Virus genome (UHGV): UHGV-0040088
Reading direction: 5' to 3' (one strand)
DNA from: a virus
Length of the DNA: 39,518 bases
In this document: positions 15,444 through 39,368 of the stretch, piece by piece
Layout: each line of letters begins with the position of its first letter
Numbering within the stretch: the first letter of the stretch is position 1
The notes under the pieces: model-generated
Databases searched by the model: none
What the model was told of the DNA's origin: nothing
Seen by the model: the letters and a program-made list of their open reading frames with translations, nothing else
Program-made: the position numbers and the translations under genes

Positions 15444-17792
15444 ATGGCAACTAGTTTAGGTACAATTTACTACGAAGTTGATGCAAAAACTGGTCAACTT
15501 CTCGTTGCTCAACGACAGGCAGACCAGGCTTTTGACAGCATCGAGCGTGGCGCAAAACGCGCTGACCGCCAGGTGAACACGCTTAAGACTTCAATCAAAG
15601 CGCTATCCAGGGTTATCCATTTGCTACTTGCTGCGGAGGCTGTACGCCAGTTTATTGACATGGCGGAGCAAGCGAAAATGCTTCGCGTAAAAATCAAAAT
15701 GCTTACTGGTGATACGGAGGCTGCCGGACGTGTTTTCGATGGCCTGAAAGAAATATCAAAAGAAACCGGGCAAAGCATGAAGGATACTGGCGAACTGTGG
15801 CAAGGCCTTGCTATATCGCTAAAAAACACATCCGCTACTGAAGGCCAATTGCTAAACCTGGTCGGTACGATTCAGAAAATGGGTGCATTAGGCGGAGCGT
15901 CAGCGGAACAGATGTCTAACTCTATGCGCCAGTTCCGCCAGTCTATAGACGGCGGCGTGCTGCGTGCTGAAGAGTTTAACAGTCTGCTTGAAAACACGCC
16001 AACCATCGTACAGACAATGGCTCGCCATATGGGGTTGTCAATGGGCCAGTTCCGCGCCGAAATGCTGGACGGCAAGATCACGGCTGAAAGGATGGTTAAC
16101 GCGATTCAGGCGGCTACACAGGAAACAAACGAGAAGTTCGCACAGTTGCCGCGCACATCCGGCATGGCCTTCAATGAGCTAAAAGTTGAGGTGATGGGAC
16201 TTGTCGAACAGCTTGACGATCTTTTCGGCATATCTGACGGCGTTGTGTCAGCAATAGACTTAATCACTGGCGGCGTTGAGGGATTAGGTAAGGGCGCAAA
16301 ATTCGCCGCAACATGTTTCAATACACTCAAAACCGCTGGTAGCGAGTTCATCGACATGTTTGACGATGTTGCTGTTAAGGCTGGCGAGGTTGCTGAAGAG
16401 ATTATCAGGATGGTAACGCCAATCAAGGCGCTAATGGATGGGTACAAATGGATGAAGGAGATCATTGACAAACGCAAGGAAGAGCTAAACAGCAACAACG
16501 AGAAGAAATTCGGCCCCACCATTGGCAAATTCATGACATTCAAGAATGACATAGAAAAAGCCACAGCCGCCTATGACGAGTTCATGCAGAAACAGGGTGA
16601 GGCTGACGATGGCAAGATCACCGGATTCGATCAGCCAGTTGGTAAGCCCAAAAAAGGCAAAAAGGGCAAAAATGACAAGAAATCTGAAGCTGATCGGCTT
16701 GGTGATGAAGGCATAAAAGTGTCCGACCAGTACAACAAGGACGCCGCCGCCATGCGTAAAGCGCTGGAGAACGGCAAGGCCATTGATGCTGCGTTCGCTC
16801 AGGGCAAAATAACCCTCCTTGAGTACAAGGCCGCGCAGAAAGGGATAGGCAAGGAGCTGAAGGACGAATTGGCGCAAATCCCTGTTGATGAGCTACGCGA
16901 CAAATGGGATCACATAGTCAGCCCGATGGATCAGCTTAAGGGAGAAATTGACCCAATCAAGCAGGCGCAAAATGAATGGGCCGTTCGAAAACAAATGCTG
17001 ATAGACCTTGGCGCTACAGAGGCGCAACAGAAACAGGCGCTATTGGAATACGAACAACAGATCAGAGATCTGAAATGGGAGCAATGGCAGGCGCAAAGCG
17101 AAACAAACGGCCTGATTGGTGCTTGCGTTAGTGGCCTGAAAGGTGGAATGGGCAACGCCCTTACCGGCCTACTAAACGGTACTCAATCGTTAAGCGAGGT
17201 TTTCGCCAACCTGGGAAGTAGCATACTTAACACTGTTGGCAACAAACTATCAGAAATTGCCGCCAACTGGATAGCAGATCAGTTGATGATGGAAACGCAA
17301 AGCAAGGCTACCCAGGCAAGTACAACGGCTGGCGCTGTTGCTGCCCAAGGCGAGATTGCGGCGGCGGCTATCCCGGCGGCGGCGGCAACGGCTGCGTCAA
17401 CTGGTGGTAGCTGGGCGGCGGCTGGTGCTGCGGCGCTTTCTGCGATCATGTCACTGGCAACGTCAATCTTTGGCGGCGGGCGTTATAATGGTGGCTCTGT
17501 TAATGGTGGTAGTCTGTATCGCGTAGGGGAACACGGGATTCCTGAGTTATTCCAGACTAGCAACGGGCGTCAGTATATGATTCCTGGCGAGAATGGTAGG
17601 GTAATTCCTGGTCGCGATCTCTTCAGTGGTGGCGGCATCAACATGCCTGTTAACATCACTGTCCAGACCACAAACGGATTTAGCGACGAAGACAGTCGCA
17701 GACTTGAACAGACGATGGAACGCGTCGCAATGAAAATGATGGCAAGGGAATCGCAACGGCCCGGAGGGATGTTACAACCTCGCAGGAAATAA
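15444..17792 (+). CDS. tail tape measure protein
   Basis: 782 aa, highly alpha-helical with a Gly/Ala-rich C-terminal region (GGGRYNGGSVNGGS); position upstream of M-L-K-I-J. Confidence 0.85.
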   Translation: MATSLGTIYYEVDAKTGQLLVAQRQADQAFDSIERGAKRADRQVNTLKTSIKALSRVIHLLLAAEAVRQFIDMAEQAKMLRVKIKMLTGDTEAAGRVFDGLKEISKETGQSMKDTGELWQGLAISLKNTSATEGQLLNLVGTIQKMGALGGASAEQMSNSMRQFRQSIDGGVLRAEEFNSLLENTPTIVQTMARHMGLSMGQFRAEMLDGKITAERMVNAIQAATQETNEKFAQLPRTSGMAFNELKVEVMGLVEQLDDLFGISDGVVSAIDLITGGVEGLGKGAKFAATCFNTLKTAGSEFIDMFDDVAVKAGEVAEEIIRMVTPIKALMDGYKWMKEIIDKRKEELNSNNEKKFGPTIGKFMTFKNDIEKATAAYDEFMQKQGEADDGKITGFDQPVGKPKKGKKGKNDKKSEADRLGDEGIKVSDQYNKDAAAMRKALENGKAIDAAFAQGKITLLEYKAAQKGIGKELKDELAQIPVDELRDKWDHIVSPMDQLKGEIDPIKQAQNEWAVRKQMLIDLGATEAQQKQALLEYEQQIRDLKWEQWQAQSETNGLIGACVSGLKGGMGNALTGLLNGTQSLSEVFANLGSSILNTVGNKLSEIAANWIADQLMMETQSKATQASTTAGAVAAQGEIAAAAIPAAAATAASTGGSWAAAGAAALSAIMSLATSIFGGGRYNGGSVNGGSLYRVGEHGIPELFQTSNGRQYMIPGENGRVIPGRDLFSGGGINMPVNITVQTTNGFSDEDSRRLEQTMERVAMKMMARESQRPGGMLQPRRK

Positions 17793-17796
17793 ACAA

Positions 17797-17826
17797 AACC
17801 CCGGTACAATGCCGGGGTTATCTTTC
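17797..17826. terminator. bidirectional terminator after tape measure gene
   Basis: Stem ccccgg/ccgggg flanked by an A-run and a T-rich run. Confidence 0.65.
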
Positions 17827-17936
17827 GTATTTATAACCGACCATTCCGCACGATATATCCTCTTCCGAAAATTACCTGTCAAATATTCCAGTTCCCCCCG
17901 CCTGGTGAATTTATCGTCATCCATATTTCACCTCAT

Positions 17937-18461
17937 TTATGTGCCATGATTAACACCATAATATTTTTCTTCTAAAAACATCCTGTAAGCTACTGCATCA
18001 CCGAAATCGTCAAAGTATTTATTGCTTTTTCTTTTTCCGTTCACAGCTATATACACCCTCCACTGCTCCCTAGACTTGCACCACGATACACCACGAAAAC
18101 CGCTAGTATTGTTTGACTTTATTTTCCCACTCCTTACGAAATCAGCACAGTTATCAACCTGATAACCTATGTTAAGGTTTTCTATTCTATCATCACCCCT
18201 TACGTCGTTAATGTGCCTTATTACATGCTCATCAGGTATCGGGCCGTGATGCATTACCCATATAACTTGATGTCTATAGTAATTTCTCTTTTTATACGTG
18301 AATATGTAGTAACCGTTTTTATTCCTGGCGCCCACCGGACCCGGTTTTCTTCTTCCTCCATTTTCACATATTAAAGTTTTCCAATATATGTTCCCTTCAC
18401 TGTATATAAACAAGTCATTCCAGTTTATGCTATTGACCATGTCGTGATTTATTTGTGACAT
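17937..18461 (-). CDS. HNH homing endonuclease (HNH plus AP2-like)
   Basis: Motifs HQVIWVMHHGPIP, RHINDVRGDDRIENL, FRGVSW..QWR; AT-rich relative to flanking tail genes. Confidence 0.85.
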   Translation of the reverse strand: MSQINHDMVNSINWNDLFIYSEGNIYWKTLICENGGRRKPGPVGARNKNGYYIFTYKKRNYYRHQVIWVMHHGPIPDEHVIRHINDVRGDDRIENLNIGYQVDNCADFVRSGKIKSNNTSGFRGVSWCKSREQWRVYIAVNGKRKSNKYFDDFGDAVAYRMFLEEKYYGVNHGT

Positions 18462-18703
18462 CCCTTAACCCCTGATAATTCATTAAATTTATGGTGCTCA
18501 ACTATTGCCCACACTTTTAGATCCTTGCTGTACACTCGCCAATCAAGGTTGGCACGGAATGCGTAGCCGTATCCGTCTTTCAGTTTTTTGGGTGCTACGT
18601 CTTTCCTCAAGAACGCGTCCAGAAGTTCTTTTGCTTTTTTGACTACATGATCAGGTGCGTTTTTCTGTGCTTTCAGATTTTTACCAATCGCTACCAATTT
18701 CAT
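18449..18703 (-). CDS. hypothetical protein (84 aa); faint RelE/ParE-like pattern
   Basis: GGGGTGGG SD; C-terminal pattern RANLDWRVYSKDLKVWAIVEHH loosely recalls RelE-family toxins; overlaps the HNH start by 13 nt. Confidence 0.45.
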   Translation of the reverse strand: MKLVAIGKNLKAQKNAPDHVVKKAKELLDAFLRKDVAPKKLKDGYGYAFRANLDWRVYSKDLKVWAIVEHHKFNELSGVKGCHK

Positions 18704-31569: not shown

Positions 31570-31598
31570 GAGGTGATGTGCGAAGAACATCGCCGCGC

Positions 31599-31628
31599 GA
31601 AACGAGGCTAACGCCTCGTTTCTTTTTA
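31599..31628. terminator. terminator between tail fiber gene and convergent minus-strand early operon
   Basis: 10-bp stem gaaacgaggc/gcctcgtttc, loop taac, then TTTTTAT. Confidence 0.65.
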
Positions 31629-31773
31629 TGTACCAAATAGTGACCAAATACCCAAAACCAAAAACAAAAGCACTGTAACATACTGTTTTATAAATTATTA
31701 TTCACAAAGCTAACCATTCCAAGCATACGGCAGATGGCAGGGCGACCAAGAAGAATTGTTGTCGTTTTATCCA

Positions 31774-33058: not shown

Positions 33059-33067
33059 AATATCAAC

Positions 33068-33628
33068 TCAAAACAATTGCAATTGAAAACGTTCGCTGAC
33101 TTCTTTCATTAACTGCTTAACATGTTTCTTATCACGCTTTCGCTGAGTTAACAGGCGGCTTCCAACCTTGCCGACCGTTTCGCTATCAGTAGCAAAACTG
33201 CTTACTGCATTCATTACCTGTTCACAGCTTGCGCCGCAACAAATAAGACCCTTAACGTGTTCAGCCATGTCATCATGTGTTTTAGGTTTTTCTCCGTAAT
33301 AGCCATTATGACGAATAGATGGCAATACTTCCTCAAACACCCAATCCTGGAAGCGTTCGGCTGATTCAAGTTTTGAATGCATAATCAAGCGGAAAACATC
33401 CGGTTCGTAAATCAGGCCAACTCCTTTCGGCTTGAATCCGAATCCTAATTCTCGCGTTTTGCGAGAATCAAGTTTAATCAATGATTTACAGTGTTTTTTA
33501 ATAGCATCATGCTCGTTCTTATAACCTAACGCGCGAGCAACATTAACAGCAACAAAAGCTGGCTTATCTGCATAAATAACCGTTTGCACTTGTTTATCAT
33601 CAAACGAGAATTTAACAACCTTATTCAT
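33068..33628 (-). CDS. Bro-N domain protein (antirepressor-like), paralog 1
   Basis: N-terminal roughly 105 aa are about 75 percent identical to 37744..38481; typical Bro-N pattern (KPAFVAVNVARALGY); unrelated C-terminus. Confidence 0.8.
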   Translation of the reverse strand: MNKVVKFSFDDKQVQTVIYADKPAFVAVNVARALGYKNEHDAIKKHCKSLIKLDSRKTRELGFGFKPKGVGLIYEPDVFRLIMHSKLESAERFQDWVFEEVLPSIRHNGYYGEKPKTHDDMAEHVKGLICCGASCEQVMNAVSSFATDSETVGKVGSRLLTQRKRDKKHVKQLMKEVSERFQLQLF

Positions 33629-33818
33629 GTTTTACCCCTTTATAACTTTCGTTTCGCGCCTTCATAATCATTTGAAGGCTGATTAATTTAGAAGAAGTCA
33701 TAAAAGCGCTTTTTAAGTACCTCATATCAACAACAACAGGATTATCAGGATCGCCGCCGCGCATGTATTCCGCAATTGTGCTTAAGTCTTCAACTGTCAA
33801 TTCCAATTCACTGTTCAT
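33621..33818 (-). CDS. hypothetical small protein (65 aa)
   Basis: AAGGGGG SD before the internal ATG; the longer track ORF lacks an RBS. Confidence 0.35.
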   Translation of the reverse strand: MNSELELTVEDLSTIAEYMRGGDPDNPVVVDMRYLKSAFMTSSKLISLQMIMKARNESYKGVKHE

Positions 33819-33828
33819 GATCGCCCCC

Positions 33829-34035
33829 TTACACAATCCGCATTGTGTTTCGTAATTCTCCGCGCAACGCCCGTAATGCATCGCGCATCGGCACGAAAAC
33901 CCGGTTAAATTTTACGTGTTTATATTTCCGCATTAGTGGCGGCGTATACACCATTGCGTCGTATACTTCCCACGGATAATAAACACGCGTATCGTCAACA
34001 AACGTTTCAACTGAATAAAAAATTACACGCCTCAT
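33829..34035 (-). CDS. hypothetical small protein (68 aa)
   Basis: ORF in track within the tightly packed operon; weak SD. Confidence 0.3.
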   Translation of the reverse strand: MRRVIFYSVETFVDDTRVYYPWEVYDAMVYTPPLMRKYKHVKFNRVFVPMRDALRALRGELRNTMRIV

Positions 34036-34049
34036 AGTTCCAACCCCGT

Positions 34050-34559
34050 TTAACCGTTAAGTTTTTCAATCTCAAATACTGGTTTATCAGGCAGTAGGCC
34101 GTTATCTTTACGGTATTCGTTTAATAAGTTACTAAAATTAAATGCGACAACATTTGAATAACCATAAAAACGCGCGTTTCTGAAAAAATATTTACCGTCA
34201 AACTTATTAACAGTTAGTAGGTTCTCACTTCCTAACATCCGCAATATTCTGCCGACCTTTCCTTTGTTTATATTAATATTCAATTCATTCTTAACATCTT
34301 CCGCTGAAAAATACCCGCTACTATTTGAAAACAAAGGGATTATATCCCTTATCGCCATTTCCCTTACTGACTTCAAGCAATATGATAATCTTTTACTATT
34401 TAGATCTACTTTTATAATAACGCCATCAGAAACCAAAGCATCCAAAGCGCAAATTATTTCACCTTCCGGTCCAGGAATAGATTTAACTATCGTTCCCTCA
34501 CCTGAAATAACAGCGTCATTTAAAAAATCAATTATTTGTTGCTGGTATGAAGTTTTCAT
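34050..34559 (-). CDS. hypothetical protein (169 aa), AT-rich, possibly two winged-helix-like segments
   Basis: GAGG SD before ATG 34559; visibly AT-richer than flanking genes; segment KGKVGRILRMLGSENLLTV resembles a recognition helix. Confidence 0.5.
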   Translation of the reverse strand: MKTSYQQQIIDFLNDAVISGEGTIVKSIPGPEGEIICALDALVSDGVIIKVDLNSKRLSYCLKSVREMAIRDIIPLFSNSSGYFSAEDVKNELNININKGKVGRILRMLGSENLLTVNKFDGKYFFRNARFYGYSNVVAFNFSNLLNEYRKDNGLLPDKPVFEIEKLNG

Positions 34560-34635
34560 TTTTAGCCTCGTTTTAAACGCGAAAACAGCCACCAGAAAGC
34601 GGTAAACTTTCCGGCAAGCTGTTTGCTAATATTGA

Positions 34636-36051
34636 TTAAAAAGATGCGTTATTCTGATTGTTTCGTTGGTTAAATCGGCTTGCGCGATGATTCATAGACT
34701 GAATACATGCAGACGCTGCGCGGGCCTGGTCACAAGGGAGGATATTGCCGTTGTCATCAAACCGCTGGTAAACAGTACCAGTTTTCCCGTGACGGTTTTT
34801 AGATACAATTATTTCCATGTATTCGCGTGCTACAGACTGCTCATCGTAATAACCATCGCGGTAAACCATGATGATCCTGTCAGCGTCTTGCTCAAGGTTC
34901 CCTGAATCTCGAAGATCTGAATTATTAGGGCGCTTGTTAGGTCGTTCCTCAACGCGGCGGGATAACTGGGCCAGCGCCAACACTGGTACGCGCAATTCTT
35001 TCGCCATCATCTTCAACGACCATGACAATTGCCCTACAGCGAGATCGTGACGTTCGGCTTTAGCCAGCTTCATTAAACCGATGTAGTCAATCATTACCAT
35101 GCCCAGGTTTGGGTGATCCTGCTTCATGCGTTCCGTTGTTGCGCGTATTTCCTCAACCGTTAACTGCGACGCGTCAACGATCCACACCTCAAGATTAGCA
35201 AGTGCGCTCATACCCTGGCCGACATGCGCCCAACCCTCATCATCAAGTTTTACCGGATTGCGCAGGCAGTCAGTTGATAAATTACCAGCGCCAGCAATGG
35301 CCCGTTCAGTCATCTGATCGAGTGACATTTCAAGCGTAAACAGCAAAACGCCTACCCGCTGACCTTCGCCACCAGGGTAAGGGCGCTCGGCAGCCTCGCG
35401 AGCAATTGCAAGCGCCAACGCAGATTTACCAGACCCAGGACGTCCGGCGAGAAGTACCAAATCAGTAGCGTTAATTCCGCCTAACATTTCGTCGAGTGGT
35501 TCTATACCTGTTTTGATGTTGTCAGAATTGACACCGCATTCCATGCGCTTGCTTAAAACGTCCGTATACTCCTGTACCGCATCACGCAACAGAACCGGAA
35601 TGATCTTGTCTTTCGTTACCTTTAATTTTGAATACCGGGAATCAAAATCTTTCATCGTCTCTTTGACGACTTCAAGCGTCCCCGTTTCCAGCTTGTAGCG
35701 CATATCGTCGATGAGTTCCAACATCTGCCGCCGCTGGTGCTCTTCACGTAGTAGCTGTGCGTATCCCTTCAGGTTGGCAGCAGAAGGACACGATCGCGCC
35801 GTTTGCATTAGCGGTACAAAGTTTTCATTGCCAATCTCATCGCCAACTAATAACGCGTCGATAAGATTCCTGTTTCTGGCTTGCGCCCGGATAACTTCAA
35901 ACGCACGTTTATAAAGCGGGATCGTGAACACTTCAGGATCAAGTGTGGCGAGAACATCTTGCGCGTTAGGAGTAAGGCCACCTAACAGTAGCCCGCCGAT
36001 AACTGACGCTTCACGTTCCTGCCGTAGTGAGTTTATTTGCTCAGTTACCAT
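34636..36051 (-). CDS. replicative DNA helicase (DnaB family)
   Basis: 471 aa; Walker A GRPGSGKSALAL; DnaB-like N-terminal domain and RecA-like core. Confidence 0.9.
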   Translation of the reverse strand: MVTEQINSLRQEREASVIGGLLLGGLTPNAQDVLATLDPEVFTIPLYKRAFEVIRAQARNRNLIDALLVGDEIGNENFVPLMQTARSCPSAANLKGYAQLLREEHQRRQMLELIDDMRYKLETGTLEVVKETMKDFDSRYSKLKVTKDKIIPVLLRDAVQEYTDVLSKRMECGVNSDNIKTGIEPLDEMLGGINATDLVLLAGRPGSGKSALALAIAREAAERPYPGGEGQRVGVLLFTLEMSLDQMTERAIAGAGNLSTDCLRNPVKLDDEGWAHVGQGMSALANLEVWIVDASQLTVEEIRATTERMKQDHPNLGMVMIDYIGLMKLAKAERHDLAVGQLSWSLKMMAKELRVPVLALAQLSRRVEERPNKRPNNSDLRDSGNLEQDADRIIMVYRDGYYDEQSVAREYMEIIVSKNRHGKTGTVYQRFDDNGNILPCDQARAASACIQSMNHRASRFNQRNNQNNASF

Positions 36052-36085
36052 TATGTTATTGCCTCCGGTTTACAAAATGGAAAAT

Positions 36086-36592
36086 TCAGGGTAAAGAAAT
36101 ACCGTGATTGCTATGAAAGTTATACATTCTTTCAGCTTCTTTTCTTGCTTTTACGGCATCATCAAATGAGTCACCGTAATAAACGTATATTGTTTTCTTT
36201 TTCCCATCAGACCCCCTTATACCTATTTGCGCGCGCCATTTATTAGTTTTCTTGTTCCATGTAACGCCAACGCATCCGCTGGTGTTACTTGATGGTATTG
36301 TTTTATTTCTGTTGTTCTCCCTCCTTGTAACCATCCTTAAGTTTTCGATTCTATCATCGCCAGGCACATGATTTATGTGATCTATTTCCATTCCATCAGG
36401 GATAGGGCCGTTAAACATTTCCCAAATAATGCGGTGACGCCATGTACAACACACACCATTAACGCGGATAGTCCAATATCCGCTATGATGCCTACTTCCA
36501 GCAACGTCACCGGCTTTTGTTTTGTTATTTGCGCGGTTACAAGACCAATATAGAACACCGTCCCTATAGGTAAATAAATCATCCCACATCAT
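36086..36592 (-). CDS. HNH homing endonuclease (HNH plus AP2-like)
   Basis: Motifs HRIIWEMFNGPIP, DHINHVPGDDRIENL, CVGVTW..KWR; start at internal ATG 36592/36589; third paralog in the window. Confidence 0.8.
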   Translation of the reverse strand: MMWDDLFTYRDGVLYWSCNRANNKTKAGDVAGSRHHSGYWTIRVNGVCCTWRHRIIWEMFNGPIPDGMEIDHINHVPGDDRIENLRMVTRRENNRNKTIPSSNTSGCVGVTWNKKTNKWRAQIGIRGSDGKKKTIYVYYGDSFDDAVKARKEAERMYNFHSNHGISLP

Positions 36593-37709
36593 GACACACC
36601 ACCATTTCAGGCCTATATACAAAGCGACCAATTTCGCCATAATCAGGACTGTAAATGATAACCGCCGCGCAACGTTGCGATCTCCATCCTCCATTAGTTG
36701 AATAAGCGTCTTTGCCCGCTAACGTGCCGTGGTGTTCAACTATGCCTATAGATGATTCTGTTACTGATTTATGGTGCAAATGTCCGACATGGACGTAAAC
36801 ATATTTCGACTTGCCGAAATCCTCGCGCCAGTCAGCTACGCAAGCAGCCAATAAATTTTCCGGCTTTTTAATAGTGTGCCCGTGGTGGTAAGCAAGAAAT
36901 GTTTTACCGTACTGCGTGTGGTGGACGATAGCAGGTGACACATCAACCGTCACGCGCGGTTCATCTTCGTAAAAAGCCGCCAGCGCCGCACGTAGCCAAA
37001 TCATGCCTGACTGATCGTGATTGCCTGACAACACCTGGATTTCAACATCCTTATGATTTAACAACATTTTACCTACCGCCCGCCGGACAGACCGGATCGC
37101 CACATAAACAAGTTTTGCGTAGCGACTATCTTGATCAAGAATGTGCCCGCTTATTGGCGTCACCGGGACCATACCGTCAGAATGAAGCAGATCGCCACCG
37201 AGGAGCAGTACGGCTTTTTCAGACATCGGAGCAGCGCCAACAGCGTAGTCAAAGAAGTCATTCAACACGCGCTCAGCGATCCCAGTGTCGTAGCTCTCGC
37301 CGCATTCAGCTTTATGAGCAAGCGCCCCGATATGCAGATCAAACACCGGATAAAGGGCCAGGCTTTTTTGAAAATCAATTTCAGGCACTGGCACAGCCTC
37401 CGCGCGTGGTATTTCATCCGTGAAAGCGTCGCGGGCCGCTTCCATTAACTGTTCCATTTCGTCGCGGTCACGGGCTGTTTTAATCCAGCGCATGATCACA
37501 TTGCCATCCTTATCGACGAGCAATGACTCAGCATTGACGCCAAAACCCGGTGCGCGACGCGTGGATATTAAACCGCGTTTCGCCAGTTTTGCGCCTAGCC
37601 GCTCGACGTTGCGTTTTGACATGCCATATTTTTCAGCGATCTGCTTGTACGTTAAACCGTTGTTATATTCAGCGATCAATTGCTCATCGCTGATTTTTCT
37701 TTGTGACAT
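36579..37709 (-). CDS. HTH domain fused to calcineurin-like metallophosphoesterase
   Basis: N-terminal HTH (LTYKQIAEKYGMSKRNVERL); phosphoesterase motifs DLH, GGDLLH, GNHD, GHLHH in canonical order. Confidence 0.75.
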   Translation of the reverse strand: MSQRKISDEQLIAEYNNGLTYKQIAEKYGMSKRNVERLGAKLAKRGLISTRRAPGFGVNAESLLVDKDGNVIMRWIKTARDRDEMEQLMEAARDAFTDEIPRAEAVPVPEIDFQKSLALYPVFDLHIGALAHKAECGESYDTGIAERVLNDFFDYAVGAAPMSEKAVLLLGGDLLHSDGMVPVTPISGHILDQDSRYAKLVYVAIRSVRRAVGKMLLNHKDVEIQVLSGNHDQSGMIWLRAALAAFYEDEPRVTVDVSPAIVHHTQYGKTFLAYHHGHTIKKPENLLAACVADWREDFGKSKYVYVHVGHLHHKSVTESSIGIVEHHGTLAGKDAYSTNGGWRSQRCAAVIIYSPDYGEIGRFVYRPEMVVCHDVG

Positions 37710-37743: not shown

Positions 37744-38481
37744 TTAGTTGCAAGTTAAAAGCTCAGTGATCCATACTTGTCCTTTAGCAGTGAATACAGC
37801 CTGCTCATATCCATCGTGAGTTACCCTCATTTCACCGTAGCCCTCATCAATAAACCACTGACTGAATACACGGCGGCGACAGCGAAGATCATAAACACCA
37901 ACCGCCGAAAGTTTTCTGTTTAATTTTACGGCTGACATTCCCAGCGGTTTAGCTACCTCTGAAGCCGTTCGGTGCATATCGTTTTTGACTATCGCGTCAC
38001 ATACAGCCGCTTTCGGAGCCAGCACTTTATTTTCAAGCGCAAGACGTTCATTTTCTTGCTTAACTAACAATTTTTGCTCGTATTCATTAGCCCACGCCCG
38101 CGCCGCTTCCGCAGGGTTAGAGAAGTCAGGCAAAGCAGGTTTGCAACCGTAACACCCATTTTCACGCAAAGCCGGAAGAACCTCCTCGCACACCCAATCC
38201 TGGAAGCGCTCGGCTGATTCTAATTTTGATCTCATAACAAGACGGTATATATCTGCCTCTCGAATTATAATTATGCCTTTTGGTCTGAACCCAAAACCTA
38301 ATTCCGTTGTTTTAACGGAATCAAGTTTAATCAATGACTTACAATGTTTTTTAATGGCCTGATGCTCGTCGTTGTACCCCAGCGCACGGGCCACATCAAC
38401 CGCAACAAAAGCAGGTTTACCGTCATAAATTACAGCAGTGATTTTATTGTCATCAAAATTAAAACACATCAACTCAGACAT
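37744..38481 (-). CDS. Bro-N / KilA-C antirepressor-like protein, paralog 2
   Basis: Bro-N N-terminus (KPAFVAVDVARALGY) and ANT/KilAC-like C-terminus; GGAGA SD before ATG 38481. Confidence 0.8.
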   Translation of the reverse strand: MSELMCFNFDDNKITAVIYDGKPAFVAVDVARALGYNDEHQAIKKHCKSLIKLDSVKTTELGFGFRPKGIIIIREADIYRLVMRSKLESAERFQDWVCEEVLPALRENGCYGCKPALPDFSNPAEAARAWANEYEQKLLVKQENERLALENKVLAPKAAVCDAIVKNDMHRTASEVAKPLGMSAVKLNRKLSAVGVYDLRCRRRVFSQWFIDEGYGEMRVTHDGYEQAVFTAKGQVWITELLTCN

Positions 38482-38729
38482 TGTAATTTCTCCGTAAAAC
38501 GCTCTACAACGCAAAAATCCCACCGCGTAACCCGTTTGCACAGGTTGCAGTGTCTTATTGCGCCAGAGGCGCTATCAGGTGGCTAATTTTCGATTTACAG
38601 ACTGGTATGTAGGTTATGGATTGATTAGCAGGTACAAACCGCCGAACAAAGCGACGTTAACAGCGATTGCAGCAGCGATGGCAAAGGCCAGGGCGAAAAC
38701 GTGTTTACCGTCCATTTTTTAAATCCTCT

Positions 38730-39368
38730 CTAAAACGAATTATTAGAAACGAATTTTCTGTATGGCTTAGGTAACGAAGGAGTGTTGCCGCCAAATAACA
38801 ACCTTATCGCATTAACAGAAAACTCAACATACATAAACGGTTCACCATCAGCATGATAGCCAACCTGTTGGCGAGCAAGCCCGCGAAGCGCCATAGACGG
38901 CGTAACAATCCAGCCATTATCAACCTTTTGAACCATGCCCAGCTTTGCAGCAGCCTTATAAACTTCACCAGACTTTCCAGGCAAGATTTTCCCTGGAGTA
39001 AGGAATACACCCTCAAGCATGTTGATCAGGCAATCATTTTCCTTGCGTAACTGCGCTGCCTCTTTCTCTCTTTCGATGAAGTAGTCACGAACCGCGCGCC
39101 CCTTAGGTGTGTGCTGGATCATCGCAATGTGTTTTGCTGCCTCAACAGTCAGAAAATATTCAGATGCTGGGCGGCCTCCATCCAGGTTATGAACATTTTT
39201 GTTCAAAACCTCAAAATCCAAAGACTTACGCAACCCGCACGCCTTTATCTGACGCTTTATCCACATGTGATAAGGAGTTTTAACACCCATTGCCTCATGT
39301 AACTGGCGACCGTCAACAGCCTCGCGCGTAACGCCGTCCATATCCTTAACAACAATATCGAACTTCAT
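38730..39368 (-). CDS. phage regulatory protein Rha-like (putative antirepressor)
   Basis: N-terminal segment VDGRQLHEAMGVKTPYHMWIKRQI matches the Rha-family pattern; GAGAGGA SD. Confidence 0.65.
   Translation of the reverse strand: MKFDIVVKDMDGVTREAVDGRQLHEAMGVKTPYHMWIKRQIKACGLRKSLDFEVLNKNVHNLDGGRPASEYFLTVEAAKHIAMIQHTPKGRAVRDYFIEREKEAAQLRKENDCLINMLEGVFLTPGKILPGKSGEVYKAAAKLGMVQKVDNGWIVTPSMALRGLARQQVGYHADGEPFMYVEFSVNAIRLLFGGNTPSLPKPYRKFVSNNSF

Follow-up and report, generated by a model that had tools for sequence, protein, structure and literature searches.

What does a sharp fall in GC content at a single gene tell us about the history of that gene in a phage genome? The question is raised by an open reading frame (ORF) on the minus strand of UHGV virus genome UHGV-0040088, at positions 34050–34559 of a stretch of 39,518 nucleotides (nt), the whole of which is called the window here. 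The original prediction, made from the sequence alone, described this gene as an AT-rich island recently acquired from a lower-GC source, encoding a protein with two winged-helix (WH) segments and having a possible replication or anti-defense role. We find that this low in GC corresponds to an AT-rich allelic cassette within a conserved gene, the tandem WH product of which appears from profile comparisons to be related to Ren of phage lambda. The pattern is one of ordinary phage mosaicism.

The compositional low of the gene is beyond chance. Its GC content is 33.1%, compared to a mean of 46.4% (standard deviation 3.7%) for 510-nt windows taken across the whole 39.5 kb, which places it outside normal window variance (z = −3.57). 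Windows of this size that are equally low in GC amount to 0.03%, and the global minimum (32.9%) starts at 34055. GC at codon positions 1, 2 and 3 is 40.6, 30.6 and 28.2%, respectively, and among 54 crude ORFs (gene-level mean GC 45.7%, standard deviation 4.0) the gene ranks lowest in both GC and GC at the third codon position (GC3). The helicase gene upstream has 49.4% GC and the Bro-N gene downstream 40.3%, and the claim that the gene is markedly AT-richer than these neighbors is borne out.

The gene is real, and its start and stop signals can be read as follows.

34050–34559, minus strand: coding sequence of a tandem WH, putatively Ren-related protein (allele A) of 169 amino acids (aa), from the ORF and the sequence
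34566–34569, minus strand: Shine-Dalgarno sequence GAGG, 6 nt 5′ of the ATG, from reading of the sequence; kept in relatives
34050–34052, minus strand: premature TAA, GAA in relatives, from DNA and protein alignments

The 169 codons run from an ATG at 34559 to the TAA. A longer ORF with a GTG start (to 34592) exists mechanically and is unused in relatives; database homologues all begin with the methionine (ATG) of MKTSYQ. The exact 169-aa protein is recorded from Escherichia coli on 24 contigs. The GAA-to-TAA change costs the window gene its final six residues (ETGLEL), and translation stops 14 nt before the ATG of the next gene (34035), a 68-aa ORF. In relatives the two genes overlap at ATGA and are translationally coupled, an arrangement that the TAA has broken in the window. 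The MagusPhagus protein also lacks the extreme tail, in this case via a frameshift, so these last residues are evidently dispensable. On the opposite strand, an antisense ORF (34264–34605, plus) was considered and rejected as an unsupported shadow ORF that reflects the AT-rich coding strand.

Comparison with relatives shows that the slot is conserved and its contents are not. By megablast, the region belongs to the mEp021 group of E. coli temperate phages (members matched: mEp021, mEp010, mEp013, mEp044, mEp515, mEp554 and MagusPhagus). Each of the seven phage records has a homologue in this position, with 33–35% identity (tblastn). A homologue also lies directly downstream of a DnaB-type helicase gene in 42 of 42 relatives from IMG/VR, and in E. 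coli prophages. Nucleotide homology to mEp021 (about 92–93%) spans the helicase gene and the spacer, ends at 34559, the first base of the start codon, and restarts at 34121, at 82% identity (blastn). Between these breakpoints there is no nucleotide homology to mEp021-type alleles.

34122–34558, minus strand: allelic cassette, variable part, codons 1–146, 437 base pairs, 32.7% GC, from blastn breakpoints and multiple DNA alignment
34053–34121, minus strand: conserved 3′ end, encoding NEYRK(D/N)NGLLPDKPVFEIEKLNG, from alignments

Three allele classes were distinguished among the 42 IMG/VR loci.

Allele A: 3 of 42 loci, 32–33% GC
Allele A2: 6 of 42 loci, 36% GC, about 68–70% aa identity to A
Allele B: 33 of 42 loci, 43–46% GC

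Allele B is typified by gp08 of mEp021, which shares with the window gene its locus, flanks of about 90% nt identity, the start position and the C-terminal 24 residues, and whose predicted fold is the same. The two differ in that identity is 33–35%, with several indels, over the first 146 residues, and in GC content (43–46% versus 33%). All three alleles have nearly the same last 23–24 residues, part of which is also retained in a distant third group (P0027), and on the right-hand side recombination is bounded by the 3′ end that encodes them. Helicase identity and allele type do not go hand in hand, the most similar helicase (94.1%) being found at an allele-B locus (L044), which indicates that the cassette moves among backbones. 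Of 5,426 complete E. coli genomes, 17 contain the locus; seven carry allele A, three carry A2, and the rest match the flanks only. Recombination between the conserved spacer/start codon on one side and the conserved 3′ tail on the other has exchanged the alleles without regard to the helicase backbone.

Substitution rates speak to the age of the AT-rich lineage. Synonymous divergence (dS) between A and A2 is 1.3–1.8, that is, saturated, with a ratio of nonsynonymous to synonymous rates (dN/dS) of 0.12–0.16; within classes dN/dS is 0.03–0.06. In the 3′ tail, dN/dS is 0.04 and dS 0.45, lower than in the remainder of the gene. Given dN/dS values of 0.03–0.16, the gene must be functional and under purifying selection. 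Because A and A2 are synonymously saturated and yet both AT-rich, the AT-rich lineage is old rather than freshly imported, and the A/A2 alleles have long been low in GC.

These data bear on the proposal that the gene is a moron: a foreign island without relation to the phage backbone, taken up recently from an organism of lower GC. Such an origin would account for the lowest GC and GC3 in the window, for a cassette without nucleotide homology to the commoner allele, and for the minority status of alleles A and A2, which together make up 9 of 42 loci in IMG/VR. It does not account for the fact that in all relatives examined (7 phage records, 42 IMG/VR contigs and E. coli prophages) the slot holds a homologous gene whose start and C-terminal 24 residues match those of the window gene, only codons 1–146 having been replaced. 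Conservation of the slot in relatives therefore holds while the term island does not, and this is so even though GC lies outside normal variance. Recent acquisition is contradicted by the low GC of both A and A2 at dS >1.3, under strong purifying selection. As for the source, no lower-GC donor was found in searches of 5.8 billion proteins, 1.84 billion representatives or species-representative genomes. In these searches the family was seen only in E. coli phage contexts and on one distant Logan contig. It is tiny (8 members, P0027 among them, in 1.84 billion cluster representatives); allele A homologues all come from E. coli, and known carriers are all E. coli phages or prophages. Nor does the locus have a flanking repeat or a separate strong promoter at the gene. 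Promoter-like matches are below chance (2 found versus 4.2 expected). A 9-of-12 sigma-70-like match starts at the ATG on the gene's own strand, and the sole terminator-like element is an upstream hairpin that forms part of the conserved flank. An imported moron is therefore highly improbable, and as an island it is largely refuted.

What the gene encodes was addressed with an AlphaFold2 model built on an 11-sequence alignment (mean predicted local distance difference test score (pLDDT) 80.6, predicted template modeling score 0.68). The predicted protein consists of two WH domains, a helix and a tail.

34374–34559, minus strand: WH domain 1 (WH1), residues 1–62, from the AlphaFold2 model
34176–34373, minus strand: WH domain 2 (WH2), residues 63–128, from the AlphaFold2 model
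34104–34151, minus strand: C-terminal helix, residues 137–152, from the AlphaFold2 model; common to the phrog_1687-type family by hhalign

The recognition helix of WH1 is acidic (net −3), and WH1 is the fastest-evolving part of the protein (dN/dS 0.31, A versus A2). WH2 is basic, with a net charge of +4 in its recognition helix (KGKVGRILRMLGS) and +2 in its wing, and in the model this basic face is likely a nucleic-acid-binding surface. Arg104 and Leu106 are nearly invariant across alleles (at least 90% of 13 aligned sequences). The tail (residues 153–169), which holds the conserved peptide, is disordered in the model, with pLDDT <50 for residues 159–169. The product has no catalytic motif, and profile and structure checks agree with the two WH segments that had been proposed from the sequence. 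Structural matches with tandem WH domains include SelB (WH3–WH4), ESCRT-II subunits and RPC34, at 8–17% identity and Foldseek TM-scores of 0.3–0.5; the biology of these proteins is unrelated, and the likeness is one of fold class only. The best match in BFVD is a 185-aa protein (query TM-score (TMq) 0.61, E 1e-9), the length of which is that of the mEp021-type allele. In Pfam, NCBIfam and PADLOC the window protein reaches no threshold, giving only generic winged helix-turn-helix (wHTH) noise, and nothing significant was returned from the PDB by sequence search with the family profile or with lambda Ren. The Z-alpha signature (Asn and Tyr in the recognition helix, Pro-Pro-x-Trp in the wing) is not present in the window protein.

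Profile comparisons connect this protein to a wider family, phrog_1687, and through it to Ren. In hmmscan, the window protein matches phrog_1687 with an E value of 7e-3 over residues 5–154 (profile positions 3–153 of 162); the query was the 180-aa GTG-started ORF, in which these are residues 16–165. The relatives match the same profile at 1.8e-4 (A2), 2.7e-10 (B) and 1e-17 (P0027). When the window family (13 sequences) is aligned by hhalign to a phrog_1687-type family made up of 19 Enterobacter/Citrobacter prophage members, the probability is 99.2% and the E value 8.5e-20 over 149 columns, which take in both WH domains and the C-terminal helix. Lambda Ren itself matches phrog_1687 (1.5e-10), and an Enterobacter member of phrog_1687 matches the Ren family, phrog_142, in two stretches (9.6e-11). 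The phrog_1687-type family aligns with lambda Ren over WH1 (hhalign probability 87.8%, E 3.3e-6), and allele B and P0027 give weak matches (2e-4 to 2e-3) to phrog_142, labeled ‘Ren-like exclusion protein’. By these profile criteria, both WH domains of the phrog_1687 family are related to lambda Ren.

Gene order tells a similar story. The WH gene closes the replication module as its last conserved member, and the window order of helicase, WH gene, 68-aa ORF, 86-aa ORF, Bro and NinB gives it the slot that ren has in lambda O-P-ren-ninB. Tandem WH or Ren genes are syntenic in four other module types, namely HTH_36 plus DnaB, O-like plus helicase, Phage_rep_O plus primase-helicase, and lambda O-P-ren-ninB. 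On the P0027 contig, the order is cI-like/cro-like, HTH_36 initiator, DnaB, P0027, two small ORFs and NinB, with an integrase further along. The member in Enterobacter phage vB_Ecl_MII_001 (phrog_1687, 9e-55) stands at the head of the nin region, preceded by an O-like gene, a helicase gene and a 92-aa ORF. In classical lambdoid prophages, the tandem WH gene directly adjoins the end of the gene for a 626-aa Toprim/AAA_25 primase-helicase, itself located after Phage_rep_O, with NinB, NinF, NinG and Q further on. Since the profile links through phrog_1687 and the O-P-ren-ninB order point the same way, the window gene is best read, at the level of sequence, as a divergent Ren relative that has undergone duplication and sits where lambda has ren. 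Database entries for these homologues contain some oddities: the vB_Ecl_MII_001 homologue (L006 4983–5435, PQ039552.1) is labeled ‘arginine/ornithine ABC transporter’, an evident annotation error, and in many prophages the homologue is given as a 223-aa protein, apparently from an upstream start.

Likeness and difference within this group can be stated more exactly. Lambda Ren (96 aa, PHROG 142) occupies the same slot, its gene being the last of the early replication module ahead of ninB and transcribed together with the replication genes, and like the window protein it is small, non-catalytic and, judging by its sequence profile, wHTH-like. It has a single WH domain in about 96–116 aa, whereas the window protein has two in 169 aa, plus a conserved tail specific to its family. 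Moreover, Ren follows the helicase loader P, which recruits host DnaB, while the window family follows a phage-encoded helicase. PHROG 1687 proteins (about 150 aa, from Enterobacter/Citrobacter lambdoid prophages) appear from the alignment to share the WH1-WH2-helix layout, and they sit in the same place, directly after a helicase or primase-helicase gene. They differ from the window family in having only 13% identity to it over the hhalign-aligned columns, in lacking the NGLLPDKPVFEIEKLN tail, and in a GC content of about 51% (33% for the window gene).

What is recorded of Ren in lambda suggests a function for its relatives. According to the supplement of a bioRxiv preprint (10.1101/2021.04.19.439022), O, P and ren overlap terminally and are co-translated, ren is carried by every phage with an initiator plus helicase-loader module, and Ren interacts with RexA and RexB in two-hybrid assays; the same supplement terms the function of Ren ‘as yet unidentified’, with a presumed connection to replication. 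Lambda without ren grows poorly on Rex+ lysogens, with suppressors in O and P (Toothman and Herskowitz 1980, as described in bioRxiv 10.1101/2021.04.19.439022). By analogy, the window gene, which is a core gene of mEp021-like phages in its AT-rich form (allele A), probably encodes a Ren-like, non-enzymatic accessory factor of the replication module, one that would modulate replication or shield it from Rex-type exclusion. At the replication complex or close to it, the basic WH2 would contact nucleic acid; WH1, which is acidic and evolves fast, would contact a variable protein partner, and the conserved tail would contact a constant phage partner, either the helicase or the product of the coupled 68-aa ORF. 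The net effect would be phage replication that is modulated, or shielded from Rex-type exclusion systems, by analogy with Ren. We infer all of these binding partners, and the anti-exclusion role with them. The replication or anti-defense role suggested in the original prediction is thus plausible, backed as it is by putative Ren homology and a shared position next to the helicase gene.

Several observations weigh against this assignment. The window protein itself does not match the Ren profile phrog_142 at E ≤ 0.1. Its link to Ren is transitive, via phrog_1687, and the family-to-Ren probability is only 88%, against a single sequence. When an 11-sequence family was compared directly with the single Ren sequence, the hhalign probability was 2.9%, and the link appeared only through the wider phrog_1687 family. 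For the tandem family, the functional step would rest on analogy with Ren, and the partner of the tail is a proposal only. Conservation of the tail could be due in part to its role as a recombination boundary, given that its dS is lower than that of the rest of the gene. Lastly, dN/dS is well below 1, with no direct sign of the positive selection expected in an arms race; the source of allele diversity is cassette exchange.

Two other functions deserve consideration, each with some features of the locus in its favor. One is that the protein is a sequence-specific wHTH regulator of the MarR/ArsR/IclR kind, acting on delayed-early or nin-region genes, with allele-specific domains and allele-specific operators. 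This is the view taken in PHROG and in one GenBank record: phrog_1687 carries the label ‘MarR family transcription regulator’, its proteins are annotated as ‘MarR family’ or ‘transcriptional regulator’, and among allele-B records, otherwise annotated as ‘hypothetical protein’, that of MagusPhagus reads ‘MarR family transcription regulator’. An Enterobacter member barely passes Pfam MarR_2 (29.3 versus 27 bits) and HTH_IclR (28.8 versus 22), and the recognition helix and wing of WH2 are basic. The window protein, however, has no match to MarR or MarR_2 (PF01047/PF12802) even at E ≤ 1 and scores below every Pfam and NCBIfam threshold. In MarR proteins each chain has a single wHTH, with N- and C-terminal dimerization helices, whereas the modeled window protein lacks helices of this kind and combines two WH domains in one chain, and its WH1 recognition helix is acidic. 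No palindrome, inverted repeat or direct repeat above chance was seen in 33900–34800, although an operator could lie elsewhere. Strict linkage to the helicase gene across differing regulatory backgrounds would also be unexpected for a repressor, and we consider a regulator of this type unlikely.

The same helicase linkage, which is invariable across five module types, lends itself to another proposal, namely that the gene encodes an essential replication protein, either a two-WH origin-binding initiator (of the plasmid RepA/RepE or lambda O type) or a DnaB loader, with the AT-rich cassette serving as origin. The two-WH architecture resembles that of iteron initiators, the combination of a variable N-terminal and a constant C-terminal part recalls lambda O, and low-GC DNA could serve as an unwinding element. 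Yet no iteron family above chance was found in alleles A, A2 or B by repeat search and k-mer family test, in which lambda gene O, used as control, yields its four iterons (4 copies versus a null maximum of 2). Allele B, moreover, is not AT-rich (43–46% GC), and separate initiator-type genes (Lin1244-type organizer, Phage_rep_O or HTH_36) lie upstream in every module. There is no Rep_3, Phage_rep_O or loader-family match in Pfam or PHROGs beyond generic wHTH noise. In lambda, ren is dispensable for replication. Only O and P are listed as known lambda replication genes in the text of Thomason et al. (bioRxiv 10.1101/2021.04.19.439022), where the role of Ren is called unidentified, and this too counts against an initiator. 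Taken together, these points make an initiator or loader with an embedded origin very doubtful. A Ren-like accessory factor remains the reading that we favor.

The wider setting of the gene is that of an early operon on the minus strand, with the order Ant/Bro-like genes, 376-aa phrog_704 protein, HNH endonuclease, DnaB-type helicase, WH gene, 68-aa ORF, 86-aa ORF, Bro-N gene and NinB. The mEp021 group has been described as ‘mEpimmI’ phages, which are Nus-dependent and non-lambdoid (PMC11893012). The elements that flank the cassette most closely are these.

34636–36051, minus strand: DnaB-type replicative helicase, constant upstream neighbor (Pfam DnaB_C 1e-75, phrog_19 1e-109)
34589–34617, minus strand: conserved stem-loop within the 76 nt that separate the helicase stop from the WH gene, from pattern scan and RNA folding
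33829–34035, minus strand: 68-aa ORF, constant downstream neighbor, from the ORF list and the conserved flank

The helicase gene has 84–94% nt identity to the window in all 42 IMG/VR relatives. The 68-aa ORF, which is translationally coupled to the WH gene in relatives only, has no family match in Pfam, PHROGs or NCBIfam searches. The stem-loop falls in the left-hand conserved flank of the cassette; it has a predicted energy of −26.8 kcal/mol (z −3.8), is near-invariant in 27 distinct relatives regardless of allele, and has no more than a weak U tract after it (UUUUCGCG or UUAUCGCG). Its role could be that of a Nus-sensitive terminator, of an element for RNA stability or of an anchor for recombination. 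Neither the Rfam nor the tRNA scan of the window gave a match.

Other parts of the window also show signs of exchange or insertion. An HNH homing-endonuclease gene (HNH_3 plus AP2-like; 36086–36694, minus) is inserted between the genes for the phrog_704 protein and the helicase. This free-standing mobile insertion occurs in mEp021 and is missing in MagusPhagus and in the CP030768 and E. coli 190 prophages. The 376-aa protein encoded next to it (36579–37709, minus; phrog_704 ‘DNA repair exonuclease’, 3e-143) has an N-terminal helix-turn-helix (HTH) and a weak resemblance to O-like and DnaD-like proteins. Its gene is the only other one constantly beside the helicase gene in the mEp021 group, and it may encode the real initiator or loader. 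Further upstream the genes are mosaic, with a Lin1244 organizer and zinc ribbon in some and Rha and HTH proteins in others, and two more Ant-like genes are found at 37744–38541 and 38730–39368. Downstream of the WH gene, a second non-homologous cassette is seen at 33059–33695, where the window has a Bro-N/Ant-like gene (33068–33628, minus; 40% GC) and mEp021 an N4/N6 DNA methyltransferase gene. A second HNH endonuclease gene (17937–18461, minus; phrog_99, 1e-41) lies within the late region, on the opposite strand to it, adjoining an 84-aa phrog_1525 ORF; it marks the second compositional trough of the window (17787–18613). With 37.5% GC it is third-lowest of the 54 crude ORFs, after the WH gene and a 69-aa ORF at 36037–36246.

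At about 31570–31770, between the tail-fiber gene (end 31569) and the early genes, there is no integrase or excisionase. Homology to prophage right ends stops near 31722, and that to mEp021 restarts at 31719, inside an xis-like HTH gene. Given these breaks and the missing genes, the int-xis-att segment appears to have been deleted or rearranged in the window genome. Directly after the tail-fiber gene is a hairpin (31601–31627, plus; AACGAGGC-TAAC-GCCTCGTT, then TCTTTTT), which is probably the terminator of the late operon.

A broader possibility, which we regard as speculative and rather unlikely, is that WH proteins of the Ren type are a general, unrecognized third component of lambdoid replication modules. 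In that case, such proteins would be single-domain where a loader borrows host DnaB and duplicated where the phage has its own helicase. In the duplicated form, the exchangeable WH cassette (A, A2 or B) would be a specificity adaptor, holding on by its tail to the constant replisome and facing a variable target, for example the sensor of a resident Rex-like abortive-infection system, and the AT-rich allele would owe its evolution to a pool of phages that infect hosts of lower GC. If all this were true, allele swapping would change which exclusion systems the phage escapes.

There is no hint here of a new enzymatic or defense system. For annotation, the findings mean that labels such as ‘hypothetical protein’, ‘MarR family regulator’ and ‘arginine/ornithine ABC transporter’ may give way to ‘Ren-like tandem winged-helix protein’, and that low GC at this locus is the mark of an allelic cassette and not of an island. 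For lambda ren, a phenotype of sensitivity to Rex exclusion has been on record since 1980. Sharply different, exchangeable alleles on a near-identical backbone amount to a natural experiment on the function of the Ren class, and swapping alleles A and B between isogenic mEp021-like phages could reveal the role of that class.

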